64,000 nt of DNA from Flectonema sp. DT1601. Lineage: Eukaryota. The translations under genes were made by a program, and so were the position numbers. Location: assembly GCA_964019425.1 (NCBI GenBank), contig OZ025795.1, positions 372,001-436,000 of the forward strand, read 5' to 3'. Below the pieces are notes generated by a model. The model did no database searches. It saw nothing but the letters and a program-made list of their open reading frames with translations, and was not told where the DNA came from. This document shows positions 12,241 through 59,882 of this stretch, piece after piece (positions within the stretch are counted from its first letter, which is position 1; each line of letters starts with the position of its first letter).

Positions 12241-12388
12241 TGTGAACTGCAGAAGAAGTTCGATAATAACGATAAAACTAATAACAGTACCACTCACGCC
12301 GAAGTAAATCATATGTACGAAGTAAGAGAAGTGGAATAAAATACACACAAAGTAATTTTGGTATTTTATGTTTTCTTAATCATCGGTG

Positions 12389-21778: not shown

Positions 21779-21809
<31 letters not shown>

Positions 21810-33565: not shown

Positions 33566-33830
33566 GAATTTCGATAAAGTGGGAAGTAACGGACTGGGAG
33601 CTTTTGGCTCCTGCCCTATTCCCGATGTAAACTTTCTTTTTATTTTTTATTTTTTTTTAACAGGCCCAAAGGGCGACAATGATGGTTGCTGACCAAGGAA
33701 TAATATTCAAATGAATTTTCGTTTCAAAGAAACGAACAGAATTAAGAGAGAGGCAGAGAAAAAAAAAAAAAAAAAAAAATGAAGAGGAAATAATCAAACA
33801 TGAAAAAAAAAAAAAAAAAAAAAAAAATAT
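33566..33830. mobile_element. Family A terminal region, copy 2 (inverted relative to copy 1)
   Basis: GAATTTCGATAAAGTGGGAAG... is the reverse complement of about 21715-22000. Confidence 0.9.
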
Positions 33831-36800
33831 TAGTCATTCCAAAAATAACCGTCCATTTTAGGGTTCCAGTATTTCATGGGTGAAAATAGGGAGTAAAACT
33901 TAAAACCGAATACCCATTTTAATCGCTTTTGCACCGCCGATTTCATTCCCGCTGCGATTCAAAAAAATGCAGCTGAGATTCAAAAAAATTGTGACATTTT
34001 TGTGTGGTGAAATTTTTGAATAATGGAACTGTTGATGTCTAATCGGCTGCCCCGGGTGCTAAAATGAAAGATCGGTATATGGTTCTATATCCGGCCGTAC
34101 CTGGTCGGATGTTTTACTCTGAAACAGTTACAAAGGCTGCTCGAAGCAAAACAGTACCTTGTACATCTTACACTACACAGCCTATTTTTATTTTTGATTA
34201 GGCTTAGCTTTTTTGGCAACTTTTACTGCTGGCCTTCTTCGTTTTCCTACCGGCAATGAACCGATAATAGAACTAGTTGAACACAGCGATCTGAAACTGG
34301 AACTAGAACTAGATTCACTAACAGAGTAAGAGCCAGTAGAAGACTCACCAGAATCTGAGGTGGGTTCAGTTGTTTCTGAAATAGACTCACTCTCAGTGTT
34401 GGTAGCAGGTGAAAGTTGGCTCGCACCAACCCACATTTAGGCCTTTTGTCACAAAACTGAGCATATGAGATAGCTGTGTGAGTTCTGCAGAAGGCACTCC
34501 AAGGCAAGGTATGGTTCTTTTACATGGAGGACTGTCTCTTTACTTGTCTCGCCGGTTATGTAGTCTTTGCTGAGGACCACGCGGTTTGACTCAGGGCGTG
34601 CATTGGAAATCCAGAAGTTCCAGATATCTCTGTCTTGGCTGCGCTGCTTTACTGATTGGGAGGGATCGTGCTGTTCCAGCCTCTGTAGCTGCTTACGCAT
34701 TGAAGAATCCCTGACATGGGCATTAATCTGGCTATCAGTGTAGCTTAGCGTGAGACAGAGTCTCAAAAACTGAGAACGGACAGCAGGAACTGATTCTTTC
34801 ACGCGTTCAAAAATATCGGAGAGCGGTTCCGGATTGATCGGCTCTGCAGGGACACTGACGGATGCGTAATGCGGATCACTAGTCAGCCTTTTTGCTCGCT
34901 GGTAGCAAGCGTTGCAGATTGAGCGCAGAGGAGCATACGCCGGGATTTCAAGACTACCGCGAAGTGGCTCAAGAAGCTTGTTGAACTTCGGATTCCATCT
35001 TTTCGCGTTAGTGTGCGAGGTGCAGTTGTAGTTGTCTGAGGAGCACGCCTTGTCGGTTCTTGTATTCCCGAAGTGCTTGTATTTCCGGAGGCATGCGATG
35101 CAGATTGCCTTTTCTCCCACTCCGATCTAGCGTCCTCATTACCGGTTCTGGCAAATCCGCGACGACATACTCAGCTGGCATCTCGTGGCACGTGTGACAA
35201 GAGAAGTTTAAGCTGGTGCTTAAGGGAATAATAAGTGTAGTTACGAGAAAAAATGCCAATCTCTGATGCATTTCCCTTTTTTTTCCAGAAAAAAATTAAA
35301 TGCAGCAACAGGATTAACTTTTCCGTGCCGACAGTGACATTCTCTTAGTACCCATAACGCACCTGTCGGGTTCCAACGGTCAGTAAAAAAAGTGAAAAAA
35401 AAATAATCCCATCGCGTAAAATGAGAGATTGGGGCCGAACCTTTCCACCTCGTAAAAAATCTCGAAAATGGATGCATTTTTGACCAACGGCTGCTCGAAG
35501 CAAAACTGGTTTTCGCGGCCGGTTATTTTTGGAATGACTAATTAGTCATTCCAAAAATAACCGTCCATTTTAGGGTTCCAGTATTTCATGGGTGAAAATA
35601 GGGAGTAAAACTTAAAACCGAATACCCATTTTAATCGCTTTTGCACCGCCGATTTCATTCCCGCTGCGATTCAAAAAAATGCAGCTGAGATTCAAAAAAA
35701 TTGTGACATTTTTGTGTGGTGAAATTTTTGAATAATGGAACTGTTGATGTCTAATCGGCTGCCCCGGGTGCTAAAATGAAAGATCGGTATATGGTTCTAT
35801 ATCCGGCCGTACCTGGTCGGATGTTTTACTCTGAAACAGTTACAAAGGCTGCTCGAAGCAAAACAGTACCTTGTACATCTTACACTACACAGCCTATTTT
35901 TATTTTTGATTAGGCTTAGCTTTTTTGGCAACTTTTACTGCTGGCCTTCTTCGTTTTCCTACCGGCAATGAACCGATAATAGAACTAGTTGAACACAGCG
36001 ATCTGAAACTGGAACTAGAACTAGATTCACTAACAGAGTAAGAGCCAGTAGAAGACTCACCAGAATCTGAGGTGGGTTCAGTTGTTTCTGAAATAGACTC
36101 ACTCTCAGTGTTGGTAGCAGGTGAAAGTTGGCTCGCACCAACCCACATTTAGGCCTTTTGTCACAAAACTGAGCATATGAGATAGCTGTGTGAGTTCTGC
36201 AGAAGGCACTCCAAGGCAAGGTATGGTTCTTTTACATGGAGGACTGTCTCTTTACTTGTCTCGCCGGTTATGTAGTCTTTGCTGAGGACCACGCGGTTTG
36301 ACTCAGGGCGTGCATTGGAAATCCAGAAGTTCCAGATATCTCTGTCTTGGCTGCGCTGCTTTACTGATTGGGAGGGATCGTGCTGTTCCAGCCTCTGTAG
36401 CTGCTTACGCATTGAAGAATCCCTGACATGGGCATTAATCTGGCTATCAGTGTAGCTTAGCGTGAGACAGAGTCTCAAAAACTGAGAACGGACAGCAGGA
36501 ACTGATTCTTTCACGCGTTCAAAAATATCGGAGAGCGGTTCCGGATTGATCGGCTCTGCAGGGACACTGACGGATGCGTAATGCGGATCACTAGTCAGCC
36601 TTTTTGCTCGCTGGTAGCAAGCGTTGCAGATTGAGCGCAGAGGAGCATACGCCGGGATTTCAAGACTACCGCGAAGTGGCTCAAGAAGCTTGTTGAACTT
36701 CGGATTCCATCTTTTCGCGTTAGTGTGCGAGGTGCAGTTGTAGTTGTCTGAGGAGCACGCCTTGTCGGTTCTTGTATTCCCGAAGTGCTTGTATTTCCGG

Positions 36801-39550
36801 AGGCATGCGATGCAGATTGCCTTTTCTCCCACTCCGATCTAGCGTCCTCATTACCGGTTCTGGCAAATCCGCGACGACATACTCAGCTGGCATCTCGTGG
36901 CACGTGTGACAAGAGAAGTTTAAGCTGGTGCTTAAGGGAATAATAAGTGTAGTTACGAGAAAAAATGCCAATCTCTGATGCATTTCCCTTTTTTTTCCAG
37001 AAAAAAATTAAATGCAGCAACAGGATTAACTTTTCCGTGCCGACAGTGACATTCTCTTAGTACCCATAACGCACCTGTCGGGTTCCAACGGTCAGTAAAA
37101 AAAGTGAAAAAAAAATAATCCCATCGCGTAAAATGAGAGATTGGGGCCGAACCTTTCCACCTCGTAAAAAATCTCGAAAATGGATGCATTTTTGACCAAC
37201 GGCTGCTCGAAGCAAAACTGGTTTTCGCGGCCGGTTATTTTTGGAATGACTAATTAGTCATTCCAAAAATAACCGTCCATTTTAGGGTTCCAGTATTTCA
37301 TGGGTGAAAATAGGGAGTAAAACTTAAAACCGAATACCCATTTTAATCGCTTTTGCACCGCCGATTTCATTCCCGCTGCGATTCAAAAAAATGCAGCTGA
37401 GATTCAAAAAAATTGTGACATTTTTGTGTGGTGAAATTTTTGAATAATGGAACTGTTGATGTCTAATCGGCTGCCCCGGGTGCTAAAATGAAAGATCGGT
37501 ATATGGTTCTATATCCGGCCGTACCTGGTCGGATGTTTTACTCTGAAACAGTTACAAAGGCTGCTCGAAGCAAAACAGTACCTTGTACATCTTACACTAC
37601 ACAGCCTATTTTTATTTTTGATTAGGCTTAGCTTTTTTGGCAACTTTTACTGCTGGCCTTCTTCGTTTTCCTACCGGCAATGAACCGATAATAGAACTAG
37701 TTGAACACAGCGATCTGAAACTGGAACTAGAACTAGATTCACTAACAGAGTAAGAGCCAGTAGAAGACTCACCAGAATCTGAGGTGGGTTCAGTTGTTTC
37801 TGAAATAGACTCACTCTCAGTGTTGGTAGCAGGTGAAAGTTGGCTCGCACCAACCCACATTTAGGCCTTTTGTCACAAAACTGAGCATATGAGATAGCTG
37901 TGTGAGTTCTGCAGAAGGCACTCCAAGGCAAGGTATGGTTCTTTTACATGGAGGACTGTCTCTTTACTTGTCTCGCCGGTTATGTAGTCTTTGCTGAGGA
38001 CCACGCGGTTTGACTCAGGGCGTGCATTGGAAATCCAGAAGTTCCAGATATCTCTGTCTTGGCTGCGCTGCTTTACTGATTGGGAGGGATCGTGCTGTTC
38101 CAGCCTCTGTAGCTGCTTACGCATTGAAGAATCCCTGACATGGGCATTAATCTGGCTATCAGTGTAGCTTAGCGTGAGACAGAGTCTCAAAAACTGAGAA
38201 CGGACAGCAGGAACTGATTCTTTCACGCGTTCAAAAATATCGGAGAGCGGTTCCGGATTGATCGGCTCTGCAGGGACACTGACGGATGCGTAATGCGGAT
38301 CACTAGTCAGCCTTTTTGCTCGCTGGTAGCAAGCGTTGCAGATTGAGCGCAGAGGAGCATACGCCGGGATTTCAAGACTACCGCGAAGTGGCTCAAGAAG
38401 CTTGTTGAACTTCGGATTCCATCTTTTCGCGTTAGTGTGCGAGGTGCAGTTGTAGTTGTCTGAGGAGCACGCCTTGTCGGTTCTTGTATTCCCGAAGTGC
38501 TTGTATTTCCGGAGGCATGCGATGCAGATTGCCTTTTCTCCCACTCCGATCTAGCGTCCTCATTACCGGTTCTGGCAAATCCGCGACGACATACTCAGCT
38601 GGCATCTCGTGGCACGTGTGACAAGAGAAGTTTAAGCTGGTGCTTAAGGGAATAATAAGTGTAGTTACGAGAAAAAATGCCAATCTCTGATGCATTTCCC
38701 TTTTTTTTCCAGAAAAAAATTAAATGCAGCAACAGGATTAACTTTTCCGTGCCGACAGTGACATTCTCTTAGTACCCATAACGCACCTGTCGGGTTCCAA
38801 CGGTCAGTAAAAAAAGTGAAAAAAAAATAATCCCATCGCGTAAAATGAGAGATTGGGGCCGAACCTTTCCACCTCGTAAAAAATCTCGAAAATGGATGCA
38901 TTTTTGACCAACGGCTGCTCGAAGCAAAACTGGTTTTCGCGGCCGGTTATTTTTGGAATGACTAATTAGTCATTCCAAAAATAACCGTCCATTTTAGGGT
39001 TCCAGTATTTCATGGGTGAAAATAGGGAGTAAAACTTAAAACCGAATACCCATTTTAATCGCTTTTGCACCGCCGATTTCATTCCCGCTGCGATTCAAAA
39101 AAATGCAGCTGAGATTCAAAAAAATTGTGACATTTTTGTGTGGTGAAATTTTTGAATAATGGAACTGTTGATGTCTAATCGGCTGCCCCGGGTGCTAAAA
39201 TGAAAGATCGGTATATGGTTCTATATCCGGCCGTACCTGGTCGGATGTTTTACTCTGAAACAGTTACAAAGGCTGCTCGAAGCAAAACAGTACCTTGTAC
39301 ATCTTACACTACACAGCCTATTTTTATTTTTGATTAGGCTTAGCTTTTTTGGCAACTTTTACTGCTGGCCTTCTTCGTTTTCCTACCGGCAATGAACCGA
39401 TAATAGAACTAGTTGAACACAGCGATCTGAAACTGGAACTAGAACTAGATTCACTAACAGAGTAAGAGCCAGTAGAAGACTCACCAGAATCTGAGGTGGG
39501 TTCAGTTGTTTCTGAAATAGACTCACTCTCAGTGTTGGTAGCAGGTGAAA
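33831..39550 (-). mobile_element. Head-to-tail array of a 1712-bp TIR element (starts 33831, 35543, 37255, 38967; fourth copy truncated)
   Basis: 21-bp perfect TIR TAGTCATTCCAAAAATAACCG / CGGTTATTTTTGGAATGACTA, with copies separated by AT. Each full copy has a Cys-rich frame (CIAC..C..CTSH..CNACY) but no recognisable catalytic domain. Confidence 0.9.
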
Positions 39551-41307
39551 AAAACAATGATAACATTGTTTATTCTTTTTTTTTTTTTTTTTAATTCTTT
39601 TTATTTATTTTTAAAAAGAAAAAAAATGGAAAATAGAAATTAGTCAACAAAGTCGAACGATAAAAAAAAACAATGATAACATTGTTTATTCTTTTTTTTT
39701 TTATTTTTTTTATATTCTTTTTTATTAATTTTGAAAAAAAAAACAATCAGTTTAGCGTCTTGACCAGGACGGAAAATAGAAAGTAATCGACATAGTCGAT
39801 CGATAAAAAAACAATGATAACATTGTTTATTCTTTTTTTTTTATTTTAAATTCTTTTTATTTATTTTTTAAAGAAAAAAAAACGGAAAATAGAAATTAGT
39901 CGACATAGTCGAACGATAAAAAAAAACAATGATAACATTGTTTATTCTTTTTTTTTTATTTTTTTTTTTTAATATTTTTTTTATTTTGAAAAAAAAAAAC
40001 AATCAGTTTAGCGTCTTGACCAGGACGGAAAATAGAAAGTAATCGACATAGTCGATCGATAAAAAAACAATGATAACATTGTTTATTCTTTTTTTTTTAT
40101 TTTTTATTCTTTTTATTTATTTTTTAAAGAAAAAAAACGGAAAATAGAAATTAGTCGACAAAGTCGAACGATAAAAAAAAACAATGATAACATTGTTTAT
40201 TCTTTTTTTTGTATTTTTTTATATTCTTTTTTATTAATTTTGAAAAAAAAACAATCAGTTTAGCGTCTTGACCAGGACGGAAAATAGAAAGTGATCGACA
40301 TAGTCGATCGATAAAAAAACAATGATAACATTGTTTATTCTTTTTTTTTTTTTATTTTTTTATTTTAAATTCTTTTTATTTATTTTTTAAAGAAAAAAAA
40401 AAACGGAAAATAGAAATTAGTCGACATAGTCGAACGATAAAAAAAAACAATGATAACATTGTTTATTCTTTTTTTTTTATTTTTTTTTTTTAATATTTTT
40501 TTATTTTGAAAAAAAAAAACAATCAGTTTAGCGTCTTGGCCAGGACGGAAAATAGAAAGTAATCGACATAGTCGATCGATAAAAAAAAACAATGATAACA
40601 TTGTTTATTCTTTTTTTTTTTATTTTAAATTCTTTTTATTTATTTTTCAAAGAAAAAAAAAACGGAAAATAGAAATTAGTCGACAAAGTCGAACGATAAA
40701 AAAAACAATGATAACATTGTTTAATCTTTTTTTTTGTACTTTTTTTATATTCTTTTTTATTAATTTTGAAAAAAAAAACAATCAGTTTAGCGTCTTGACC
40801 AGGACGGAAAATAGAAAGTGATCGACATAGTCGATCGATAAAAAAACAATGATAACATTGTTTATTCTTTTTTTTATTTTAAATTCTTTTTATTTATTTT
40901 TTAAAGAAAAAAAAACGGAAAATAGAAATTAGTCGACAAAGTCGAACGATAAAAAAAAACAATGATAACATTGTTTATTCTTTTTTTGTATTTTTTTATA
41001 TTCTTTTTTATTAGTTTTGAAAAAAAAACAATCAGTTTAGCGTCTTGACCAGGACGGAAAATAGAAAGTGATCGACATAGTCGATCGATAAAAAAACAAT
41101 GATAACATTGTTTATTCTTTTTTTGTATTTTTTTATATTCTTTTTTATTAATTTTGAAAAAAAAACAATCAGTTTAGCGTCTTGACCAGGACGGAAAATA
41201 GAAAGTGATCGACATAGTCGATCGATAAAAAAACAATGATAACATTGTTTATTCTTTTTTTTTTATTTTAAATTCTTTTTATTTATTTTTTAAAGAAAAA
41301 AAACGGA
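39551..41307. repeat. Family A satellite (reverse orientation)
   Basis: Reverse complement of the alpha/beta monomers. Confidence 0.95.
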
Positions 41308-42343
41308 AGTTGAATTTACAGGTGAGATTTGGACTGTTAGCTTTTGGCTAAGGCCCTCCCTGAAGAGCAAGAACAAAAAAACTACTCACACCTGAAGAAA
41401 ACATACACAAAGAACACACTGTAAGCTGTGTGTGTATTTTGTGTTTGTCACAACAGGAGAGAAAAGAAAGAATGTCAAGGTTGGTCACCTTGCCTATCAA
41501 CGCACAACATTGGTGGTCTCTACTAGACCCTGAGTGATCCCACTGGATCTCTCATCGTTCATAGTACCTATGTGAAGTTATAAAATCAAAGGTAAACTAT
41601 GAACTACAAATGACTTAGCCTGTTATTATAATGCCACAGGCAGGCCCTGCATTCAGCAACTATCCAGCAGTGCTTGGATGTCCTGATCTTCTTCTAAAAA
41701 AAAGAAAGAAAAACAAAACTGTAGCTGGGATCACTCAGGATCAACAGACTACCAATGCTACCTGTTGTACTTGCTCACTATGGGGGGTGATGCCAAACAC
41801 CCAGAAGTACTCAACTACTTTCCTTCTTGCTGCCCAGGAGTTTCTGACCAGAACTAATAGAAAATAAAAAGTAGATGGGAAACAATAAAAAGTAAAATGG
41901 ATATAACTGAAGTTATACAAGACAAATGAAGTAACAGACCAGAACAGAAAGAGGATTGTAATAGAAGATTACAAATAAAAAAATGCAAGTATCAACACAT
42001 AATCAAGATACACCAGCAGCTAACAAACAACATAAAATTGAAGATCAGTTGCCAGAGTATTTCAACCATGGTAGAATACTCGCCCCTCTGGCAGGGATTA
42101 TCCCAGACTTGTCCTTTAATCTAGTTGGACACCATGGTTCCCACCTTATGATTTTCTTGAAGAAAAAAAATAGAAGTCATAATGGTGCTTCCCTCTGGAA
42201 GGGTTGTAAGCCATGGTGTCCAACTAGATTAAAGGACAAGTCTGGGATAATCCCTGCCAGAGGGGCGAGTATTCTACCATGGTTGAAATACTCTGGCAAC
42301 TGATCTTCAATTTTATGTTGTTTGTTAGCTGCTGGTGTATCTA
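41308..42343. mobile_element. Family B partial copy with fold-back inversion at 42137/42138
   Basis: Starts at the B terminus (AGTTGAATT..); 42138-42343 is the reverse complement of a B internal segment. Confidence 0.8.
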
Positions 42344-42521
42344 GAATTCGATAGAGTGGGAAGTAACGGACTGGGAGCTTTTGGCTCCTGCCCTATTCCC
42401 GATGTAAACTTTCTTTTTATTTTTTTTTTTTTTTTTTAACAGGCCCAGAGGGCGACAATGACTGTTGCTGACCAAGGAATAATATTCAAATGAATTTTCG
42501 TTTCAAAGAAACGAACAGAAT

Positions 42522-44425
42522 GAGTTGAATTACCAGGTGAGATTTGGACAGTTAGCTTTTGGCTAAGGCCCTCCCTGAAGAGCAAGAACAGAAAAACTAC
42601 TCACACCTGAAGAAAACATACACAAAGAACACACTGTAAGCTGTGTGTGTATTTTGTGTTTGTCACAACAGGAGAGAAAAGAAAGAATGTCAAGGTTGGT
42701 CACCTTGCCTATCAACGCACAACATTGGTGGTCTCTACTAGACCCTGAGTGATCCCACTGGATCTCTCATCGTTCATAGTACCCTGTGTGAAGTTATAAA
42801 ATCAAAGGTAAACTATGAACTACAAATGACTTAGCCTGTTATTATAATGCCACAGGCAGGCCCTGCATTCAGCAACTATCCAGCAGTGCTTGGATGTCCT
42901 GATCTTCTTCTAAAAAAAAGAAAGAAAAACAAAACTGTAGCTGGGATCACTCAGGATCAACAGACTACCAATGCTACCTGTTGTACTTGCTCACTATGGG
43001 GGGTGATGCCAAACACCCAGAAGTACTTAACTACTTTCCTTCTTGCTGCCCAGGAGTTTCTGACCAGAACTAATAGAAAATAAAAAGTAGATGGGAAACA
43101 ATAAAAAGTAAAATGGATATAACTGAAGTTAAACAAGACAAATGAGGTAACAGACCAGAACAGAAAGAGGATTGTAATAGAAGATTACAAATAAAAAAAA
43201 ATGCAAGTATCAACACATAATCAAGATACACCAGCAGCTAACAAACAACATAAAATTGAAGATCAGTTGCCAGAGTATTTCAACCATGGTAGAATACTCG
43301 CCCCTCTGGCAGGGATTATCCCAGACTTGTCCTTTAATCTAGTTGGACACCATGGCTTACAACCCTTCCAGAGGGAAGCACCATTATGACTTCTATTTTT
43401 TTTCTTCAAGAAAATCATATGGTGGGAACAAAGAAAAATGCTAAGAGGAACCCCCTATTAACCTAAGACATCTAAACTGCAGCCCAGCCTATGCCCAATG
43501 CACTAACAGGTCATTCCCTCACACTCAGATCAAAAAATCAAAGTTCAGAGTGCATCTTAGCGTGAATGAGAGAATTTCCTCCCGCTTATTTTGAACAAAA
43601 GGGATAGGAGAAGGGATAGAAAACGAACATAAAAATAAGATTCTAAGTGAGAAACACTTAGCAGAAATACTTAGCAGCTTTTAAGGAGCTGAAAAGCAAA
43701 AAAAAAATCTAAGTGAGAAACACTTAGTAGAAACAATTTGTAGCTAATTAAGCTGAAAATAAAAAAATAAAAAATTTCTAAGTGAGAAATACTTAGCAAC
43801 TTTTAGAACAAATATTTCAGTAAATAACCTGTAATGATTAAACCATTACAGGTTTGATGTCAAAACTGACAAGGACTGAGTTGAATTACCAGGTGAGATT
43901 TGGACAGTTAGCTTTTGGCTAAGGCCCTCCCTGAAGAGCAAGAACAGAAAAACTACTCACACCTGAAGAAAACATACACAAAGAACACACTGTAAGCTGT
44001 GTGTGTATTTTGTGTTTGTCACAACAGGAGAGAAAAGAAAGAATGTCAAGGTTGGTCACCTTGCCTATCAACGCACAACATTGGTGGTCTCTACTAGACC
44101 CTGAGTGATCCCACTGGATCTCTCATCGTTCATAGTACCCTGTGTGAAGTTATAAAATCAAAGGTAAACTATGAACTACAAATGACTTAGCCTGTTATTA
44201 TAATGCCACAGGCAGGCCCTGCATTCAGCAACTATCCAGCCGTGCTTGGATGTCCTGATCTTCTTCTAAAAAAAAGAAAGAAAAACAAAACTGTAGCTGG
44301 GATCACTCAGGATCAACAGACTACCAATGCTACCTGTTGTACTTGCTCACTATGGGGGGTGATGCCAAACACCCAGAAGTACTTAACTACTTTCCTTCTT
44401 GCTGCCCAGGAGTTTCTGACCAGAA
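42522..44425. mobile_element. Family B insertion, about 1.4 tandem units of 1356 bp
   Basis: GAGTTGAATT terminus at 42522 and again at 43878. Confidence 0.85.
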
Positions 44426-44648
44426 GAGAGAGGCAGAGAAAAAAAAAAAAAAAAGAAAGAAAAGAAAAAAAAAATATGAAGAGGAAATAATCAAACATGA
44501 AAAAAATAAAAAAAAAAAAATAAAATATAAATAAAAAACGTTGTATGAAAAAGGAAAAAAAAGAAAAAAAAAAAAAAAAGACAAGAAAAGGAAAGAGAAA
44601 ATGAAAAGGTATAATATTATTGTGGGGATATGAGGATAGCAGGGAGAT

Positions 44649-44683
<35 letters not shown>

Positions 44684-44754
44684 TTATTATTTAAAAAAAA
44701 GGAAACAATCAGTTTAGCGTCTCGATCGGGACGGAAAATAGAAATTAATCGACA

Positions 44755-46390
44755 GGATAAGAGATTTGGGAGAGGAATAGGGGCAGTGAACTTTTGGTTC
44801 AGGCCCTTCCCATCGAACAGGACGAAGACTTCTAAAACCTGAGATGAACCAATTGAGTTGAAACAAACAAATAACAGAGACGCAACACATACCGGAACAT
44901 CATCGCAAGCAATGCTTCGGACCTCCGTCGACCTTCGTTCTTCCGGCGGCAAAGGGAAACAAGAAAGAACGGGCAATGAGACAAACCTGTTAGTTGGTGT
45001 TGTGTTGTTGTTAAAAACAAAAACATAAACGCCAGGAAGTTCGACAACGAAGACATCGACATCGATCGCTGCTCTGCAGATGTCCGGCGGGTGTTTGTCT
45101 ACACTGTGTTTATTGTTTGTTTTTTTCCCAAGGTTCAACCTTGGGAAGAGAAGTAAAAAATTCCGTCAATGTTGGCCTTCCTGTTCGAAGGTGCGCACCA
45201 ATGACGATAAATAGAGTGGGGGGAGAAAACCTTTGATCCAACTGGATCCCTTCACGAGCTGACATTGCCATGTGAAGTTAAATATTCTGGCGATGCCAGC
45301 TCAGGCGACTTAGCCTGCTTTTTTCTTTAAATAAAAAACAACAGGTGACGCTAAACACCCAGGGGATACAAACCAAACTTTCCCCCTGTTGCCCTGTTTG
45401 AAATAAATTAAAAAAAGAACAAGAAAACAGAATACAATACTCAGCAATCAGACTCGTTCACTCGCTTCGCCAGAGCCGTTCGAGCCGATGCTCATGTAAA
45501 GTTACCTGTTTTCTTTTAACAAATTAAATAAAATAAGATAAATAAAAATAAAGTAGCGCAACGGAGAGGAATACATAACACCTCGACTCTTGCGCTAGCA
45601 TCGCAAGGGGGGTACCCGGGAGATACAAACCAAACTTTCTCTGGAATACAATACCTAACAATCAGTGCGTTCACTGGCCTTAGGGCTGTTCGGACTTATG
45701 CTTTGGACTGTTCCCTTGCAGAAAAAAAAAGTAAAATAAACCAACTTTGGGACATTAGAAAAGCATAAAATAAAAGTTGCTACAACCAAAAGACAACTGC
45801 AAAAAAAAAAGGTTTTTGTAGGGGAGCTACAATGTAGCAATAATGTCACACAGTCATGTGGCAAGCTGGATAAGAGATTTGGGAGAGGAATAGGGGCAGT
45901 GAACTTTTGGTTCAGGCCCTTCCCATCGAACAGGACGAAGACTTCTAAAACCTGAGATGAACCAATTGAGTTGAAACAAACAAATAACAGAGACGCAACA
46001 CATACCGGAACATCATCGCAAGCAATGCTTCGGACCTCCGTCGACCTTCGTTCTTCCGGCGGCAAAGGGAAACAAGAAAGAACGGGCAATGAGACAAACC
46101 TGTTAGTTGGTGTTGTGTTGTTGTTAAAAACAAAAACATAAACGCCAGGAAGTTCGACAACGAAGACATCGACATCGATCGCTGCTCTGCAGATGTCCGG
46201 CGGGTGTTTGTCTACACTGTGTTTATTGTTTGTTTTTTTCCCAAGGTTCAACCTTGGGAAGAGAAGTAAAAAATTCCGTCAATGTTGGCCTTCCTGTTCG
46301 AAGGTGCGCACCAATGACGATAAATAGAGTGGGGGGAGAAAACCTTTGATCCAACTGGATCCCTTCACGAGCTGACATTGCCATGTGAAG
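44755..46390. mobile_element. Family C insertion: one 1113-bp deletion-variant unit plus a partial unit
   Basis: GGATAAGAG terminus at 44755 and 45868. Confidence 0.85.
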
Positions 46391-46429
46391 TAGTCGATCG
46401 ATAGAAAAAAAAACAATGATAACATTGTT

Positions 46430-46466
<37 letters not shown>

Positions 46467-46826
46467 CTTTTAATTATTTTAAAGAAAAAACAATCAGTTT
46501 AGCGTCTTGACCAGTACGGAAAATAGAAAGTGATCGACATAGTCGATCGATAAAAAAACAATGATAACATTGTTTATTCTTTTTTTTTATTTTAAATTCT
46601 TTTTATTTATTCTTTAAAGAAAAGAAAACGGAAAATAAAAATTAGTCGACAAAGTCGAACGATAAAAAAAAAACAATGATAACATTGTTTATTCTTTTTT
46701 TTTTTGTTTTTTTTTTATATTCTTTTTTATTAATTTTGAAAAAAAAAACAATCAGTTTAGCGTCTTGACCAGGACGGAAAATAGAAAGTAATCGACATAG
46801 TCGATCGATAAAAAAACAATGATAAC

Positions 46827-49013
46827 CATGGTGTCCAACTAAATTAAAGGACAAGTCTGGGATAATCCCTGCCAGAGGGGCGAGTATTCTACCATGGTTG
46901 AAATACTCTGGCAACTGATCTTCAATTTTATGTTGTTTGTTAGCTGCTGGTGTATCTAGATTATGTGTTGATACTTGCATTTTTTTATTTGTAATCTTCT
47001 ATTACAATTCTCTTTCTGTTCTGGTCTGTTACTTCATTTGTCTTGTTTAACTTCAGTTATATCCATTTTACTTTTTATTGTTTCCCATCTACTTTTTATT
47101 TTCTATTAGTTCTGGTCAGAAACTCCTGGGCAGCAAGAAGGAAAGCAGTTTAGTACTTCTGGGTGTTTGGCATCACCCCCCATAGTGAGCAAGTACAACA
47201 GGTAGCATTGGTAGTCTGTTGATCCTGAGTGATCCCAGCTACAGTTTTGTTTTTCTTTCTTTTTTTTAGAAGAAGATCAGGACATCCAAGCACTGCTGGA
47301 TAGTTGCTGAATGCAGGGCCTGCCTGTGGCATTATAATAACAGGCTAAGTCATTTGTAGTTCATAGTTTACCTTTGATTTTATAACTTCACATAGGGTAC
47401 TATGAACGATGAGAGATCCAGTGGGATCACTCAGGGTCTAGTAGAGACCACCAATGTTGTGCGTTGATAGGCAAGGTGACCAACCTTGACATTCTTTCTT
47501 TTCTCTCCTGTTGTGACAAACACAAAATACACACACAGCTTACAGTGTGTTCTTTGTGTATGTTTTCTTCAGGTGTGAGTAGTTTTTTTGTTCTTGCTCT
47601 TCAGGGAGGGCCTTAGCCAAAAGCTAACAGTCCAAATCTCACCTGGAAATTCAACTCAGTCCTTGTCAGTTTTGGCATCAAACTTGTAATGGTTTAATCA
47701 TTACAGGTTATTTACTGAAATATTTGTTCTAAAAGTTGCTAAGTATTTCTCACTTAGAAATTTTTTATTTTTTTATTTTCAGCTTAATTAGCTACAAATT
47801 GTTTCTACTAAGTGTTTCTCACTTAGTTTTTTTTTTTGCTTTTCAGCTCCTTAAAAGCTGCTAAGTGTTTCTGCTAAGTGTTTCTCACTTAGAATTTTAT
47901 TTTTATGTTCGTTTTCTATCCCTTCTCCTATCCCTTTTGTTCAAAATAAGCGGGAGGAAATTCTCTCATTCACGCTAAGATGCACTCTGAACTTTGATTT
48001 TTTGATCTGAGTGTGAGGGAATGACCTATTAGTGCATTGGGCATAGGCTGGGCTGCAGTTTAGATGTCTTAGGTGTTAATAGGGGGTTCCTCTTAGCATT
48101 TTTCTTTGTTCCCACCATATGATTTTCTTGAAGAAAAAAAATAGAAGTCATAATGGTGCTTCCCTCTGGAAGGGTTGTAAGCCATGGTGTCCAACTAAAT
48201 TAAAGGACAAGTCTGGGATAATCCCTGCCAGAGGGGCGAGTATTCTACCATGGTTGAAATACTCTGGCAACTGATCTTCAATTTTATGTTGTTTGTTAGC
48301 TGCTGGTGTATCTAGATTATGTGTTGATACTTGCATTTTTTTATTTGTAATCTTCTATTACAATTCTCTTTCTGTTCTGGTCTGTTACTTCATTTGTCTT
48401 GTTTAACTTCAGTTATATCCATTTTACTTTTTATTGTTTCCCATCTACTTTTTATTTTCTATTAGTTCTGGTCAGAAACTCCTGGGCAGCAAGAAGGAAA
48501 GCAGTTTAGTACTTCTGGGTGTTTGGCATCACCCCCCATAGTGAGCAAGTACAACAGGTAGCATTGGTAGTCTGTTGATCCTGAGTGATCCCAGCTACAG
48601 TTTTGTTTTTCTTTCTTTTTTTTAGAAGAAGATCAGGACATCCAAGCACTGCTGGATAGTTGCTGAATGCAGGGCCTGCCTGTGGCATTATAATAACAGG
48701 CTAAGTCATTTGTAGTTCATAGTTTACCTTTGATTTTATAACTTCACATAGGGTACTATGAACGATGAGAGATCCAGTGGGATCACTCAGGGTCTAGTAG
48801 AGACCACCAATGTTGTGCGTTGATAGGCAAGGTGACCAACCTTGACATTCTTTCTTTTCTCTCCTGTTGTGACAAACACAAAATACACACACAGCTTACA
48901 GTGTGTTCTTTGTGTATGTTTTCTTCAGGTGTGAGTAGTTTTTTTGTTCTTGCTCTTCAGGGAGGGCCTTAGCCAAAAGCTAACAGTCCAAATCTCACCT
49001 GGAAATTCAACTC
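46827..49013. mobile_element. Family B insertion, reverse orientation, about 1.6 units
   Basis: AATTCAACTC terminus at 47657 and 49013. Confidence 0.85.
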
Positions 49014-50546: not shown

Positions 50547-53500
50547 GGATAAGAGATTTGGGAGAGGAATAGGGGCAGTGAACTTTTGGTTCAGGCCCTT
50601 CCCATCGAACAGGACGAAGACTTCTAAAACCTGAGATGAACCAATTGAGTTGAAACAAACAAATAACAGAGACGCAACACATACCGGAACATCATCGCAA
50701 GCAATGCTTCGGACCTCCGTCGACCTTCGTTCTTCCGGCGGCAAAGGGAAACAAGAAAGAACGGGCAATGAGACAAACCTGTTAGTTGGTGTTGTGTTGT
50801 TGTTAAAAACAAAAACATAAACGCCAGGAAGTTCGACAACGAAGACATCGACATCGATCGCTGCTCTGCAGATGTCCGGCGGGTGTTTGTCTACACTGTG
50901 TTTATTGTTTGTTTTTTTCCCAAGGTTCAACCTTGGGAAGAGAAGTAAAAAATTCCGTCAATGTTGGCCTTCCTGTTCGAAGGTGCGCACCAATGACGAT
51001 AAATAGAGTGGGGGGAGAAAACCTTTGATCCAACTGGATCCCTTCACGAGCTGACATTGCCATGTGAAGTTAAATATTCTGGCGATGCCAGCTCAGGCGA
51101 CTTAGCCTGCTTTTTTCTTTAAATAAAAAAAATAAAAAGATACCAACAGGTGGGGTGATGGGTTGCGCCACTGCAATCCAGTCACAAAAAGAAACAAAGG
51201 TAATCTCAAGGGTTCTCGACCCTTGGCTCTCCCTGCGCAAGCATCGCATGGAGGGTGACGCTAAGCACCCGGGGGGTACGAAACAAACTTTCCCCCTGCT
51301 GTCCTGTTTGAAATAAAAAAAAAAAAACAAAGGGATAGAAGTAAACAGAATACGTTACACCTCAACAGGTGACGCTAAACACCCAGGGGATACAAACCAA
51401 ACTTTCCCCCTGTTGCCCTGTTTGAAATAAATTAAAAAAAGAACAAGAAAACAGAATACAATACTCAGCAATCAGACTCGTTCACTCGCTTCGCCAGAGC
51501 CGTTCGAGCCGATGCTCATGTAAAGTTACCTGTTTTCTTTTAACAAATTAAATAAAATAAGATAAATAAAAATAAAAATAAAGTAGCGCAACGGAGAGGA
51601 ATACATAACACCTCGACTCTTGCGCTAGCATCGCAAGGGGGGTACCCGGGAGATACAAACCAAACTTTCTCTGGAATACAGTACCTAACAATCAGTGCGT
51701 TCACTGGCCTTAGGGCTGTTCGAACTTATGCTTTGGACTGTTCCCTTGCAGAAAAAAAAAGTAAAATAAACCAACTTTGGGACATTAGAAAAGCATAAAA
51801 TAAAAGTTGCTACAACCAAAAGACAACTGCAAAAAAAAAGGTTTTTGTAGGGGAGCTACAATGTAGCAATAATGTCACACAGTCATGTGGCAAGCTGGAT
51901 AAGAGATTTGGGAGAGGAATAGGGGCAGTGAACTTTTGGTTCAGGCCCTTCCCATCGAACAGGACGAAGACTTCTAAAACCTGAGATGAACCAATTGAGT
52001 TGAAACAAACAAATAACAGAGACGCAACACATACCGGAACATCATCGCAAGCAATGCTTCGGACCTCCGTCGACCTTCGTTCTTCCGGCGGCAAAGGGAA
52101 ACAAGAAAGAACGGGCAATGAGACAAACCTGTTAGTTGGTGTTGTGTTGTTGTTAAAAACAAAAACATAAACGCCAGGAAGTTCGACAACGAAGACATCG
52201 ACATCGATCGCTGCTCTGCAGATGTCCGGCGGGTGTTTGTCTACACTGTGTTTATTGTTTGTTTTTTTCCCAAGGTTCAACCTTGGGAAGAGAAGTAAAA
52301 AATTCCGTCAATGTTGGCCTTCCTGTTCGAAGGTGCGCACCAATGACGATAAATAGAGTGGGGGGAGAAAACCTTTGATCCAACTGGATCCCTTCACGAG
52401 CTGACATTGCCATGTGAAGTTAAATATTCTGGCGATGCCAGCTCAGGCGACTTAGCCTGCTTTTTTCTTTAAATAAAAAAAATAAAAAGATACCAACAGG
52501 TGGGGTGATGGGTTGCGCCACTGCAATCCAGTCACAAAAAGAAACAAAGGTAATCTCAAGGGTTCTCGACCCTTGGCTCTCCCTGCGCAAGCATCGCATG
52601 GAGGGTGACGCTAAGCACCCGGGGGGTACGAAACAAACTTTCCCCCTGCTGTCCTGTTTGAAATAAAAAAAAAAAAACAAAGGGATAGAAGTAAACAGAA
52701 TACGTTACACCTCAACAGGTGACGCTAAACACCCAGGGGATACAAACCAAACTTTCCCCCTGTTGCCCTGTTTGAAATAAATTAAAAAAAGAACAAGAAA
52801 ACAGAATACAATACTCAGCAATCAGACTCGTTCACTCGCTTCGCCAGAGCCGTTCGAGCCGATGCTCATGTAAAGTTACCTGTTTTCTTTTAACAAATTA
52901 AATAAAATAAGATAAATAAAAATAAAAATAAAGTAGCGCAACGGAGAGGAATACATAACACCTCGACTCTTGCGCTAGCATCGCAAGGGGGGTACCCGGG
53001 AGATACAAACCAAACTTTCTCTGGAATACAGTACCTAACAATCAGTGCGTTCACTGGCCTTAGGGCTGTTCGAACTTATGCTTTGGACTGTTCCCTTGCA
53101 GAAAAAAAAAGTAAAATAAACCAACTTTGGGACATTAGAAAAGCATAAAATAAAAGTTGCTACAACCAAAAGACAACTGCAAAAAAAAAGGTTTTTGTAG
53201 GGGAGCTACAATGTAGCAATAATGTCACACAGTCATGTGGCAAGCTGGATAAGAGATTTGGGAGAGGAATAGGGGCAGTGAACTTTTGGTTCAGGCCCTT
53301 CCCATCGAACAGGACGAAGACTTCTAAAACCTGAGATGAACCAATTGAGTTGAAACAAACAAATAACAGAGACGCAACACATACCGGAACATCATCGCAA
53401 GCAATGCTTCGGACCTCCGTCGACCTTCGTTCTTCCGGCGGCAAAGGGAAACAAGAAAGAACGGGCAATGAGACAAACCTGTTAGTTGGTGTTGTGTTGT

Positions 53501-53845: not shown

Positions 53846-56800
53846 CTTTTAATTATTTTAAAGAAAAAACAATCAGTTTAGCGTCTTGACCAGTACGGAA
53901 AATAGAAAGTGATCGACATAGTCGATCGATAAAAAAACAATGATAACATTGTTTATTCTTTTTTTTTATTTTAAATTCTTTTTATTTATTCTTTAAAGAA
54001 AAGAAAACGGAAAATAAAAATTAGTCGACAAAGTCGAACGATAAAAAAAAAACAATGATAACATTGTTTATTCTTTTTTTTTTTGTTTTTTTTTTATATT
54101 CTTTTTTATTAATTTTGAAAAAAAAAACAATCAGTTTAGCGTCTTGACCAGGACGGAAAATAGAAAGTAATCGACATAGTCGATCGATAAAAAAACAATG
54201 ATAACCATGGTGTCCAACTAAATTAAAGGACAAGTCTGGGATAATCCCTGCCAGAGGGGCGAGTATTCTACCATGGTTGAAATACTCTGGCAACTGATCT
54301 TCAATTTTATGTTGTTTGTTAGCTGCTGGTGTATCTAGATTATGTGTTGATACTTGCATTTTTTTATTTGTAATCTTCTATTACAATTCTCTTTCTGTTC
54401 TGGTCTGTTACTTCATTTGTCTTGTTTAACTTCAGTTATATCCATTTTACTTTTTATTGTTTCCCATCTACTTTTTATTTTCTATTAGTTCTGGTCAGAA
54501 ACTCCTGGGCAGCAAGAAGGAAAGCAGTTTAGTACTTCTGGGTGTTTGGCATCACCCCCCATAGTGAGCAAGTACAACAGGTAGCATTGGTAGTCTGTTG
54601 ATCCTGAGTGATCCCAGCTACAGTTTTGTTTTTCTTTCTTTTTTTTAGAAGAAGATCAGGACATCCAAGCACTGCTGGATAGTTGCTGAATGCAGGGCCT
54701 GCCTGTGGCATTATAATAACAGGCTAAGTCATTTGTAGTTCATAGTTTACCTTTGATTTTATAACTTCACATAGGGTACTATGAACGATGAGAGATCCAG
54801 TGGGATCACTCAGGGTCTAGTAGAGACCACCAATGTTGTGCGTTGATAGGCAAGGTGACCAACCTTGACATTCTTTCTTTTCTCTCCTGTTGTGACAAAC
54901 ACAAAATACACACACAGCTTACAGTGTGTTCTTTGTGTATGTTTTCTTCAGGTGTGAGTAGTTTTTTTGTTCTTGCTCTTCAGGGAGGGCCTTAGCCAAA
55001 AGCTAACAGTCCAAATCTCACCTGGAAATTCAACTCAGTCCTTGTCAGTTTTGGCATCAAACTTGTAATGGTTTAATCATTACAGGTTATTTACTGAAAT
55101 ATTTGTTCTAAAAGTTGCTAAGTATTTCTCACTTAGAAATTTTTTATTTTTTTATTTTCAGCTTAATTAGCTACAAATTGTTTCTACTAAGTGTTTCTCA
55201 CTTAGTTTTTTTTTTTGCTTTTCAGCTCCTTAAAAGCTGCTAAGTGTTTCTGCTAAGTGTTTCTCACTTAGAATTTTATTTTTATGTTCGTTTTCTATCC
55301 CTTCTCCTATCCCTTTTGTTCAAAATAAGCGGGAGGAAATTCTCTCATTCACGCTAAGATGCACTCTGAACTTTGATTTTTTGATCTGAGTGTGAGGGAA
55401 TGACCTATTAGTGCATTGGGCATAGGCTGGGCTGCAGTTTAGATGTCTTAGGTGTTAATAGGGGGTTCCTCTTAGCATTTTTCTTTGTTCCCACCATATG
55501 ATTTTCTTGAAGAAAAAAAATAGAAGTCATAATGGTGCTTCCCTCTGGAAGGGTTGTAAGCCATGGTGTCCAACTAAATTAAAGGACAAGTCTGGGATAA
55601 TCCCTGCCAGAGGGGCGAGTATTCTACCATGGTTGAAATACTCTGGCAACTGATCTTCAATTTTATGTTGTTTGTTAGCTGCTGGTGTATCTAGATTATG
55701 TGTTGATACTTGCATTTTTTTATTTGTAATCTTCTATTACAATTCTCTTTCTGTTCTGGTCTGTTACTTCATTTGTCTTGTTTAACTTCAGTTATATCCA
55801 TTTTACTTTTTATTGTTTCCCATCTACTTTTTATTTTCTATTAGTTCTGGTCAGAAACTCCTGGGCAGCAAGAAGGAAAGCAGTTTAGTACTTCTGGGTG
55901 TTTGGCATCACCCCCCATAGTGAGCAAGTACAACAGGTAGCATTGGTAGTCTGTTGATCCTGAGTGATCCCAGCTACAGTTTTGTTTTTCTTTCTTTTTT
56001 TTAGAAGAAGATCAGGACATCCAAGCACTGCTGGATAGTTGCTGAATGCAGGGCCTGCCTGTGGCATTATAATAACAGGCTAAGTCATTTGTAGTTCATA
56101 GTTTACCTTTGATTTTATAACTTCACATAGGGTACTATGAACGATGAGAGATCCAGTGGGATCACTCAGGGTCTAGTAGAGACCACCAATGTTGTGCGTT
56201 GATAGGCAAGGTGACCAACCTTGACATTCTTTCTTTTCTCTCCTGTTGTGACAAACACAAAATACACACACAGCTTACAGTGTGTTCTTTGTGTATGTTT
56301 TCTTCAGGTGTGAGTAGTTTTTTTGTTCTTGCTCTTCAGGGAGGGCCTTAGCCAAAAGCTAACAGTCCAAATCTCACCTGGAAATTCAACTCATTGTTTA
56401 ATCTTTTTTTTTAAATTCTTTTTATTTATTTTTTAAAGAAAAAAAACGGAAAATAGAAATTAGTCGACAAAGTCGAACGATAAAAAAACAATGATAACAT
56501 TGTTTATTCTTTTTTTTTATTTTTTTTATATTTTTTTTTAATTAATTTTGAAAAAAAAACAATCAGTTTAGCGTCTTGACCAGGACGGAAAATAGAAAGT
56601 GATCGACATAGTCGATCGATAAAAAAACAATGATAACATTGTTTATTCTTTTTTTTTATTTTAAATTCTTTTTATTTATTTTTTAAAGAAAAAAAAACGG
56701 AAAATAGAAATTAGTCGACAAAGTCGAACGATAAAAAAAACAATGATAACATTGTTTATTCTTTTTTTTATTTTTTTTTTTATATTCTTTTTTATTAATT

Positions 56801-58247
56801 TTGAAAAAAAAAAAAAAAAAACAACCAGTTTAGCGTCTTGACCAGGACGGAAAATAGAAAGTAATCGACATAGTCGATCGATAAAAAAACAATGATAACA
56901 TTGTTTATTCTTTTTTTTTTTAAATTCTTTTTATTTATTTTTTAAAGGAAAAAAAAAAACGGAAAATAGAAATTAGTCGACAAAGTCGAACGATAAAAAA
57001 AAAAAAACAATGATAACATTGTTTATTCTTTTTTTTTTTTTTTTAATTCTTTTTATTTATTAAAAAAAAAAAACAATCAGTTTAGCGTCTTGACCAGGAC
57101 GGAAAATAGAAAGTGATCGACATAGTCGATCGATAAAAAAACAATGATAACATTGTTTATTCTTTTTTTTTATTTTAAATTCTTTTTATTTATTTTTTAA
57201 AGAAAAAAAAAAACGGAAAATAGAAATTAGTCGACAAAGTCGAACGATAAAAAAAAAAAAACAATGATAACATTGTTTATTCTTTTTTTTTTTATTTTTT
57301 TATATTCTTTTTTATTAATTTTGAAAAAAAAACAATCAGTTTAGCGTCTTGACCAGGACGGAAAATAGAAAGTGATCGACATAGTCGATCGATAAAAAAA
57401 CAATGATAACATTGTTTATTCTTTTTTTTTATTTTAAATTCTTTTTATTTATTCTTTAAAGAAAAGAAACGGAAAATAGAAATTAGTCGACAAAGTCGAA
57501 CGATAAAAAAAACAATGATAACATTGTTTATTCTTTTTTTTATTTTTTTTTTATATTCTTTTTTATTAATTTTGAAAAAAAAAAAAAAAAAAAAACAATC
57601 AGTTTAGCGTCTTGACCAGGACGGAAAATAGAAAGTAATCGACATAGTCGATCGATAAAAAAACAATGATAACATTGTTTATTCTTTTTTTTTTTTAAAT
57701 TCTTTTTATTTATTTTTTAAAGGAAAAAAAAAACGGAAAATAGAAATTAGTCGACAAAGTCGAACGATAAAAAAACAATGATAACATTGTTTATTTTTTT
57801 TTTTTTTTTTTTTTATTTCTTTTTATTTATTAAAAAAAAAAACAATCAGTTTAGCGTCTTGACCAGGACGGAAAATAGAAAGTGATCGACATAGTCGATC
57901 GATAAAAAAACAATGATAACATTGTTGGATAAGAGATTTGGGAGAGGAATAGGGGCAGTGAACTTTTGGTTCAGGCCCTTCCCATCGAACAGGACGAAGA
58001 CTTCTAAAACCTGAGATGAACCAATTGAGTTGAAACAAACAAATAACAGAGACGCAACACATACCGGAACATCATCGCAAGCAATGCTTCGGACCTCCGT
58101 CGACCTTCGTTCTTCCGGCGGCAAAGGGAAACAAGAAAGAACGGGCAATGAGACAAACCTGTTAGTTGGTGTTGTGTTGTTGTTAAAAACAAAAACATAA
58201 ACGCCAGGAAGTTCGACAACGAAGACATCGACATCGATCGCTGCTCT
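52714..58247. repeat. Second copy of a duplicated block, offset 7379-7380 bp from about 45338-50867 (C-A-B-A-C)
   Basis: Identical junctions and ORFs recur at +7379/+7380 (46642/54021, 50443/57823); includes B 54206-56392. Confidence 0.92.
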
Positions 58248-58324
58248 ACTATGTCGATTACTTTCTATTTTCCGTCCTGGTCAAGACGCTAAACTGATTG
58301 TTTTTTCTTTAAAAAAAAAAAAAG

Positions 58325-58361
<37 letters not shown>

Positions 58362-59135
58362 ATAAACAATGTTATCATTGTTTTTTTTTTATCGATCGAC
58401 TATGTCGATCACTTTCTATTTTCCGTCCTGGTCAAGACGCTAAACTGATTGTTTTTTTTTTCAAAATTAATAAAAAAGAATATAAAAAAAAAAATAAAAA
58501 AAAAAGAATAAACAATGTTATCATTGTTTTTTTTTTTATCGTTCGACTTTGTTGACTAATTTCTATTTTCCGTTTTTTTTCTTTTTAAAATAAAAAGAAT
58601 TTAAAAAAAAAAAAAAAAAAGAGTAAACAATGTTATCATTGTTTTTTTTATCGATCGACTATGTCGATTACTTTCTATTTTCCGTCCTGGTCAAGACGCT
58701 AAACTGATTGTTTTTTTTTCAAAATTAATAAAAAAGAATATAAAAAAAAACAAAAAAAAAAAGAATAAACAATGTTATCATTGTTTTTTTTTATCGTTCG
58801 ACTTTGTCGACTAATTTTTATTTTCCGTTTTTTTTCTTTAAAAATAAATAAAAAGAATTTAAAAAAAAAAAAAAAAAAAGAATAAACAATGTTATCATTG
58901 TTTTTTTATCGATCGACTATGTCGATCACTTTCTATTTTCCGTCCTGGTCAAGACGCTAAACTGATTGTTTTTTCTTTAAAATAATAAAAAGGATTAAAA
59001 AAAAAAAAAAAAAAAAAAAAGAATAAACAATGTTATCATTGTTTTTTATCGATCGACTATGTCGATCACTTTCTATTTTCCGTCCTGGTCAAGACGCTAA
59101 ACTGATTGTTTTTTCTTTAAAAAATAATTAAAAGG

Positions 59136-59166
<31 letters not shown>

Positions 59167-59558
59167 ATAAACAATGTTATCATTGTTTTTTTATCGATCG
59201 ACTATGTCGATCACTTTCAATTTTCCGTCCTGGTCAGGACGCTAAACTGATTGTTTTTTCTTTAAAAATAAATAAAAAGAATAAAAAAAAAGAAAAAAAA
59301 AAGGAATAAACAATGTTATCATTGTTTTTTTTTTATCGATCGACTATGTCGATTACTTTCTATTTTCCGTCCTGGTCAGGACGCTAAACTGATTGTTTTT
59401 TCTTTAAAAATAAATAAAAAGAATAAAAAAAAAAGAAAAAAAAAAGGAATAAACAATGTTATCATTGTTTTTTATCGATCGACTATGTCGATCACTTTCT
59501 ATTTTCCGTCCTGGTCAAGACGCTAAACTGATTGTTTTTTCTTTAAAATAATTAAAAG

Positions 59559-59591
<33 letters not shown>

Positions 59592-59844
59592 ATAAACAAT
59601 GTTATCATTGTCTTTTTTCTATCGATCGACTATGTGGATCACTTTCAATTTTCCGTCCTGGTCAGGACGCTAAACTGATTGTTTTTTCTTTAAAAATAAA
59701 TAAAAAGAATAAAAAAAAAAAAAAAAAAAAGGAATAAACAATGTTATCATTGTTTTTTTTCTATCGATCGACTATGTCGATTAATTTCTATTTTCCGTCC
59801 TGATCGAGACGCTAAACTGATTGTTTCCTTTTTTTAAATAATAA

Positions 59845-59882
<38 letters not shown>

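Follow-up and report, generated by a model that had tools for sequence, protein, structure and literature searches.

Three repeat families in a 64,000-nt stretch of DNA (the window; Flectonema sp. DT1601, contig OZ025795.1, positions 372,001 to 436,000) share one exact insertion end and a stem-loop close to it. The explanation that we hold to be moderately probable is that they are non-coding mobile repeats, mobilised in trans from this stem-loop by a Penelope-like reverse transcriptase (RT)-endonuclease. The families are B (unit 1356 nt) and C (unit 1350 nt), which are tandem families, as is element A (unit 1712 nt), and the dispersed element E, whose tail is an AT-rich 140/256-nt satellite. 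By analogy with Penelope-like elements (PLEs), B, C and E are likely to be non-autonomous retroelements that work like Penelope partial tandems. The support includes one fixed and one variable end, no target-site duplication (TSD), no strict target motif, and one template variant per insertion.

Insertions longer than one unit

An earlier note on this DNA had pointed to single insertions exceeding one unit over a span (42522 to 49013) that was found to run exactly from the outer terminus of B2 to that of B3. The lengths were confirmed (B2, 1.40 units; C1, 1.47 units; B3, 1.61 units), and insertions sized between one and two units account for three of the five independent B/C insertions in the window. 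B3' and the right end of C2, both covered by a 7.38-kb duplication (99.8% identity across the 5.5 kb compared), were left out of this count. Each insertion was assigned to the strand on which its fixed terminus is a 3' end (Table 1).

B2, C1 and B3 start at a common base, run through a full unit, cross the terminus again without an added base and stop part-way, with one end base-exact and the other variable. This pattern had been ascribed to each B or C insertion; it holds for these three, but not for B1 (0.61 unit plus an inverted piece), C2 (2.39 units) or C3 (at least 2.99 units). C2 is a recombinant produced by the 7.38-kb duplication. When the flanks of B2, C1 and B3 were rejoined, an intact target was obtained, with 0-3 bases lost and no TSD, and because the joined flanks restore the target without duplication, the three are regarded as single insertions. 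C1, whose C unit has lost 232 nt internally and measures 1113 nt, lies in the E satellite with zero target loss, and B3 lies in a palindrome of the E satellite with the loss of 0-1 base.

The far ends share 1-2 bases with the target and have no terminator motif in common. The fixed end was exact in eight of nine independent E, B and C insertions, the ninth carrying one altered base. The target base ahead of the fixed end was T in five, A in two, C in one and G in one, so that there is no common base. None of the nine fixed ends had a 30-40-nt tail, a feature that is optional in PLEs and is judged here on a small sample; E0 has 3-6 extra bases. B1 is joined head to head, via 1 shared base, to an inverted B piece, with one difference between the arms over about 130 shared sites.

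Table 1. Positions of the elements and structural motifs in the window
Feature	Position	Strand	Remarks
B2	42522-44425	-	1904 nt, 1.40 units of 1356; host site is the head of element E2
B2, full unit	42522-43877
B2, partial copy	43878-44425
C1	44755-46390	-	1636 nt, 1.47 of its own 1113-nt unit
B3	46826-49013	+	2188 nt, 1.61 units; B in opposite orientation
B1	41307-42137	-	0.61 unit; far end at B3's far-end base
Inverted B piece	42138-42343	+	about 206 nt, unit positions about 907 to 701; interrupted by E2
C2	50547-53769	-	2.39 units; left junction as C3, right junction as C1
B3'	54205-56392	+	identical duplicate of B3; no independent insertion
C3	57927-64000	-	at least 2.99 units, continues past window edge; E3 interrupts first unit
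Terminal stem-loop, B2 outer copy	42546-42572	-
Other B stem-loops	43902-43928, 41331-41357	-
Other B stem-loops	47607-47633, 48963-48989, 54986-55012, 56342-56368	+
Terminal stem-loop, C1 outer copy	44781-44807	-
Other C stem-loops	45894-45920, 50573-50599, 51923-51949, 53273-53299, 57953-57979, 61331-61357, 62681-62707	-
Internal double-hairpin core (B), common to B and C	43002-43020	unassigned
Internal double hairpin, C copies	45344-45369, 51254-51279, 51368-51393
E0	16010-22006	+	E insertion into 31-nt satellite; fixed end 22000
E1, fixed end and head	33566-33828	-	stem-loop 33591-33617
E2, fixed end and head	42344-42521	-	stem-loop 42368-42394
E3	58248-60278	+	insertion into C3; fixed end 60278, variable end in satellite
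Element A	33830-39550		3.34 identical 1712-nt units head to tail, within E1

Template variants

Within the 548 nt that are present twice, the two copies differ at one site in B2 and at none in B3, and none of the 832 sites compared between the two copies of B3 differ; B2 and B3 differ from each other at 6-7 positions over the same 548 nt. The shared variable sites grouped by insertion in six cases of six and by position in none, which would be expected from a single template copied round repeatedly or from a donor whose adjacent units were identical. The copies within C1 are also identical, but all C copies are identical over that stretch, and C1 is thus uninformative. Since the repeats are near-identical inside an insertion, with 6-7 differences between insertions, each insertion derives from one template variant. 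Redundant RNA recopied over generations would put changes in one copy only, so a monomer stage or a recently homogenised donor appears to be needed, and a monomer stage is what the sorting of variants by insertion points to.

The sorting is compatible with an RNA circle, a DNA circle or a young array alike. B1 and B3 differ in their flanks and variants and yet have a common last base (chance about 0.002-0.004), and this common stop fits either a transcript start at that base, with lengths of 0.61 and 1.61 units as the result, or a circle with a strong stop at that point. The proposal of a circular or tandem template is supported in that the variants sort by insertion in all six cases, but not as regards the circle itself: contig loops also arise from arrays, and the common stop of B1 and B3 fits a linear RNA. 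A circular template for B and C remains compatible with the data.

A stem-loop shared by B, C and E

A 27-nt pattern is common to E, B and C and ends 24-26 nt from the fixed terminus. It had 19 matches in the window and none in 100 shuffles, the pattern having been derived from those same copies. On the strand where the terminus is a 3' end, the minimum-energy fold is the same in the three families (z-scores of -3.4 for E, -1.4 for B and -2.3 for C): a two-stem hairpin with a five-base A-rich loop and a lower stem, followed by a 10-15-nt unpaired tail. On the opposite strand the folds of E, B and C are unlike one another. Pairing was found in 45 of 45 cells, with both sides changed in three of nine pairs across E, B and C. 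At one pair E and B have G-U where C has G-C, and the opposite strand would give an A-C mismatch. From the predicted folds we infer the polarity of insertion, in which the fixed end would be the 3' end.

An internal double hairpin, in which B and C differ by compensatory changes, is likewise common to the two families (43002-43050, 51254-51300 and 51368-51415). It is present as one copy in B and as two full copies and a partial third in C, and has no match in Rfam. It is possibly a promoter, a protein-binding site or a novel kind of ribozyme. A small palindrome is common to B and C as well, in the same order relative to the double hairpin. Comparison of B with C by blastn gave three colinear same-strand matches, a number reached in 0 of 300 shuffles (two were reached in 19); one of the three is an A-rich tract, and the matches are supportive only alongside the folds. 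Because the double hairpin with its compensatory changes and the palindrome share their order, B and C look like distant relatives that have retained cis signals.

In B, C and E0 there is partial sequence conservation before the terminus as well as after it. In B and C a hairpin is predicted to either side of the junction, and of these a single one is conserved from family to family. We considered but dropped a pseudoknot that would join the conserved loop to U-rich sequence beyond the junction, as B and C differ in the spacing and the pairing is broken in one B variant.

Coding capacity, ribozymes and relatives

The 76 frames of at least 35 aa in B, C, the E head and a small terminal inverted repeat (TIR) element were scanned. 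No B or C frame had a Pfam match at the curated cut-off. Three Rfam scans gave no ribozyme match near the gathering score. The absence of a hammerhead core, as originally noted, was borne out by these scans, which gave no hammerhead match, and by a search for core plus stem II with 0 candidates on both strands of B, C and E. A home-made, crude descriptor for hepatitis delta virus (HDV) ribozymes gave 0 matches in B and C; its four matches in E are poly(A)/poly(T) artefacts. There was no CRESS nonanucleotide in B or C, no match of C to plasmids, and no viral match to the internal double hairpin.

A scan with the stem-loop pattern returned 5 viral loci and at least 119 metagenome loci, and long flanks were retrieved for 80 of them. 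Among the matches listed, none of 124 loci matched the repeat-masked window by blastn. In two of the 124 the four variable apical pairs are all retained, with GC-rich surroundings that do not resemble those of the elements, and these two were judged to be chance.

The region was found in part in 16 of 20 listed public sequencing runs from 11 studies, and six of the 20 were examined, as contigs only; no RNA run was among those listed, a fact without bearing on expression. The B head-to-tail joint was present in three of four runs examined and the C joint in four of four (3 samples), and these joints carry variants of their own. The C terminus starts with GAA in three of C's four runs, nearer to E and B. 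In one run (X4), B formed one contig of 1387 nt and C one of 1382 nt, about a unit plus the word length, at depths of 14 and 6. These contigs confirm the joint and fit circles and arrays alike; closed loops in short-read contigs are no proof of a circle because tandem arrays yield them equally. Words of B, C and E occur in runs X1-X16 under many coded organism labels, at low depth in those examined, a pattern to be expected where a protist with high-copy repeats is a minor member of mixed samples.

Possible routes of mobilisation

Target-primed copying of the PLE type is favoured because of the fixed and variable ends, the microhomology, the lack of TSD and of a strict target, the inverted copy and the common 3' structure. 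By this route, a unit would be transcribed as a multimer or a circle, and a helper enzyme would bind the stem-loop and cut AT-rich DNA. The 3' end of the target would then prime cDNA at the fixed point, possibly inside the RNA; copying would pass the next terminus since the template continues; and the far end would be joined via 0-2 shared bases. The inverted form may result from priming from both sides of the break. The identical copies would require a monomer stage, for which the candidates are circular RNA, circular DNA excised between direct repeats, and an array that had only just expanded; longer arrays such as C2 could then grow through unequal exchange.

The features that favour this route match descriptions of PLEs. 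Naiad and Chlamys PLEs are reported to form partial tandems, to have an adjacent inverted 5'-truncated copy and no hammerheads, and to include non-autonomous multi-copy head-to-tail families with common 3' ends (PMC8557442). One PLE (PAc) was described in vitro as initiating internally in a stem-loop without target homology, cutting AT-rich DNA and extending both strands (PMC11167929), and a partial tandem without TSD, joined by microhomology, is described for rotifer Penelopes (PMC3846280).

Several observations weigh on the other side. No RT, GIY-YIG or Rep family was found in the 76 frames, and the frames scanned in the window contained no PLE RT/GIY-YIG partner. There is just one inverted copy, and its outer end is absent. 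Taken alone, C has a lower energy on the opposite strand; the count of doubly changed pairs was equalled in 60 of 500 shuffles; and the covariation comes from three families, from which the structure itself was drawn. Among the elements of the Diplonema genome, LINE, SLACS, R2/jockey, TATE, MULE and Helitron proteins are listed, and 'Penelope' is unmentioned in the main text of that paper (PMC10161547); nor are PLEs among the four trypanosomatid clades described in PMC12278014. Finally, element A indicates that concatemers arise here by other routes too. Because it is a concatemer without the stem-loop, a length above one unit is not diagnostic by itself, and it is the clean junctions and the shared end that distinguish B and C from element A.

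The main rival is a DNA rolling circle, in which an HUH protein of Helitron2- or Replitron-like type would nick its donor, circular or tandem, at the conserved junction, join the 5' end to the target, release more than a full turn and stop at random. We consider this possible but somewhat unlikely. It accounts for the missing TSD, the hairpin and the satellites; absence of TSD, a hairpin near one end, the satellite-carrying E and the concatemers all fit Helitron-type elements as described (PMC5148889, PMC13085455). In B, C and E0 the partial conservation before and after the terminus resembles that of a nick site, one variant per insertion is equally expected from a circle, and Helitron-like open reading frames are reported in Diplonema papillatum (PMC10161547). 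However, E, B and C have no fixed target dinucleotide, whereas only 46 of 1,751 Helraiser insertions are reported to miss AT (PMC4778049). There are no TC/CTRR ends, inverted matches between 25 nt of one end and 100 nt of the other reach at most 7 nt in B and 5 nt in C, the far ends lack a common terminator motif, and a head-to-head inverted copy would be unexpected. A bolder form of the circle, to which we attach a doubtful standing, is that B and C would be 1.35-kb protein-free and ribozyme-free circular satellite replicons of diplonemids, with a conserved structured origin and internal motifs, existing as free circles and written into chromosomes by rolling circle through a helper so far undescribed in Euglenozoa.

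The remaining explanations account for less of the evidence. A 3' stem-loop common to unrelated non-coding families is typical of pairs of short and long interspersed elements (SINEs and LINEs), and B, C and E could be SINE-like and depend on a LINE outside the Penelope group, of the type with a restriction-like endonuclease (such as SLACS/CRE, R2 or Hero), the RT of which would jump from the end of one unit-length RNA to the end of another; SLACS- and R2-like RTs are annotated in D. papillatum (PMC10161547). Such jumping should mix variants within an insertion, whereas all six shared sites sort by insertion; moreover, the fixed end has no poly(A) or repeat tail and there is neither TSD nor site specificity, which leaves this reading improbable. 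We give still less weight to B and C as free circles present in many copies, either episomes or small mitochondrial chromosomes, with rolling-circle tails that became trapped at nuclear breaks. Diplonemid mitochondria are reported to contain many small high-copy circles, of 2-12 kb in the species cited, and mitochondrial inserts are reported in the D. papillatum nucleus (PMC5658414, PMC7049700, PMC10161547); B and C each form a single X4 contig near one unit and are almost equal in size. But B and C have motifs in common and no constant region, the contigs examined show no alternative cassettes branching off B, and no mitochondrial protein family was found with genetic code 4 in the 76 frames, a weak test, such modules being short and divergent. 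Passive capture, in addition, gives no base-exact ends, and E, a dispersed satellite-bearing repeat, has the same end. Ordinary monomer insertions expanded later by unequal crossing-over, or an assembly error, are hardly credible. Although C2 and B3' do come from the 7.38-kb duplication, crossing-over alone, which the earlier note had named as an explanation that would undo its proposal, is rejected for B2, C1 and B3 because a monomer offers no direct repeat for recombination and because, at each of the three, the two junctions are clean and restore the empty site. The head-to-tail joint in other runs, with variants of its own, also speaks against this reading.

Comparison with known systems

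The comparison with Penelope-like partial tandems is strengthened by the head-to-head inverted copy and the common end structure, and on these analogies B, C and E appear to work like a Penelope partial tandem and not as a retrozyme. A partial tandem with a fixed 3' and a truncated 5' end, as in endonuclease-type (EN+) PLEs, was found in B2, C1 and B3 when the polarity is taken from the folds, and the adjacent inverted 5'-truncated copy in one of three independent B insertions (41307-42343), its outer end cut by E2. Like the non-autonomous Chlamys PLEs (MRC1 of Chlamydomonas) and Naiad as described in PMC8557442, B and C are non-coding, occur as partial and multi-copy head-to-tail forms, and have a fixed 3' end common to families, a variable 5' end, an inverted truncated neighbour and no canonical hammerhead. 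Unlike them, B and C have no autonomous partner among the frames scanned, no 30-40-nt tail and no microsatellite target, and their host is diplonemid-like; 'Discoba' and 'Euglen' are absent from the main text of PMC8557442. Penelope of D. virilis and PAc of Anolis resemble B and C in a truncated copy ahead of a full copy, stem-loop initiation and AT-rich targets, and a Penelope-type transcript starting in the upstream copy would account for the 0.61- and 1.61-unit lengths; unlike B and C, they are reported to encode RT and GIY-YIG, and PAc to have a hammerhead and a tail (PMC2377424, PMC11167929).

The likeness to retrozymes did not hold at the level of membership, as there is no hammerhead. 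Retrozymes of the non-LTR type (LTR, long terminal repeat) are likewise described as non-coding tandem units with a proposed circular template and a PLE helper, but are defined by a hammerhead per unit, which B and C lack (bioRxiv 10.64898/2026.07.22.740005). Non-autonomous Helitron2/Helentron elements (FoHeli, DINE) share the lack of TSD, a subterminal hairpin, internal satellites (in E), tandems and putative circles (PMC5148889). B and C differ from them in having no asymmetric TIR at the expected place (the best inverted match is 5 nt in C and 7 nt in B, the latter 12 nt from the end), no fixed target (insertion between T and T is not kept), random far ends and an inverted copy. The Helitron1 signature (5'-TC, CTRR-3', insertion between A and T) is absent, A and T flanking the site at C1 only. 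Replitrons, like B and C, have one exact and one imprecise end and a hairpin near an end; in contrast to those described in PMC10288648, B and C have no short direct terminal repeats (the longest direct match is 4-6 nt and not terminal), RG target or TSD, and their far end varies by hundreds of bases within the element. The HDV-like 5' ribozyme (by the crude descriptor), poly(A) tail and TSD of ingi/RIME/SIDER elements were not found.

Elements E and A and the host setting

The window is eukaryotic. Diplonema papillatum is the top named match of two host proteins (70% and 80% identity), with named trypanosomatid matches near 70% for a V-ATPase subunit, and on these proteins the host of B, C and E is classed as diplonemid-like. 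A guanidinoacetate methyltransferase-like gene is duplicated in tandem at 4415-6836 (96.7% identical). From 12 kb on, the window is filled with nested repeats. A 31-nt satellite with strong G and T skew occupies 12387-16009 and 22007-33565; inside the second array is a higher-order repeat of about 4.87 kb, and the two E fixed ends that flank this array point apart.

The 3-6 bases after the fixed end of E0 (22001-22006) resemble the sequence past the terminus in C arrays, a hint that E also exists in head-to-tail form. E2 picks up at 44426 and continues into the AT-rich 140/256-nt satellite that hosts C1, B3 and C2/C3. E3, at which 1-2 target bases were lost, is present in the first unit of C3 and absent from the duplicated C2; because of this, E may have moved after the 7.38-kb duplication, which would be very recent activity. 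The E satellite also contains a piggyBac-like element (19411-21136) with TTAA flanks and broken DDE_Tnp_1_7 frames, and the small non-coding TIR element (17616-18378), which has an apparent 6-nt target duplication and no Pfam match.

Element A has 22-nt TIRs. It starts at its own terminus, and its far end removed more than 200 nt of E. The protein fragment within it has relatives of 784 and 807 aa in which motifs like those of DDE transposases can be made out by eye; these relatives have no Pfam match and are probably Sola2-like. From its sequence, element A looks like a concatemeric derivative of a TIR DNA (cut-and-paste) transposon.

Significance

The over-length insertions are real and stand on firmer ground than in the earlier note, but partial tandems themselves are a known signature. 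What is new is that a diplonemid-like host contains a set of hammerhead-free, non-coding families whose end structure is conserved, together with direct evidence of one template variant per insertion; no prior description of such elements in diplonemids was found in the literature searched, which was mostly without subscription papers and supplements. For the regeneration of Penelope tandems, no obvious mechanism beyond a propensity to form tandems is put forward in PMC2377424, and how partial tandems of this type regenerate is an open question that the very young non-coding B and C families make testable. If the helper is a PLE, the behaviour of endonuclease-type PLEs would extend to Euglenozoa, where the literature searched gave no report; if it is an HUH protein, B, C and E would represent a rolling-circle element without target specificity. 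The conserved stem-loop provides a ready tag for locating the helper enzyme.

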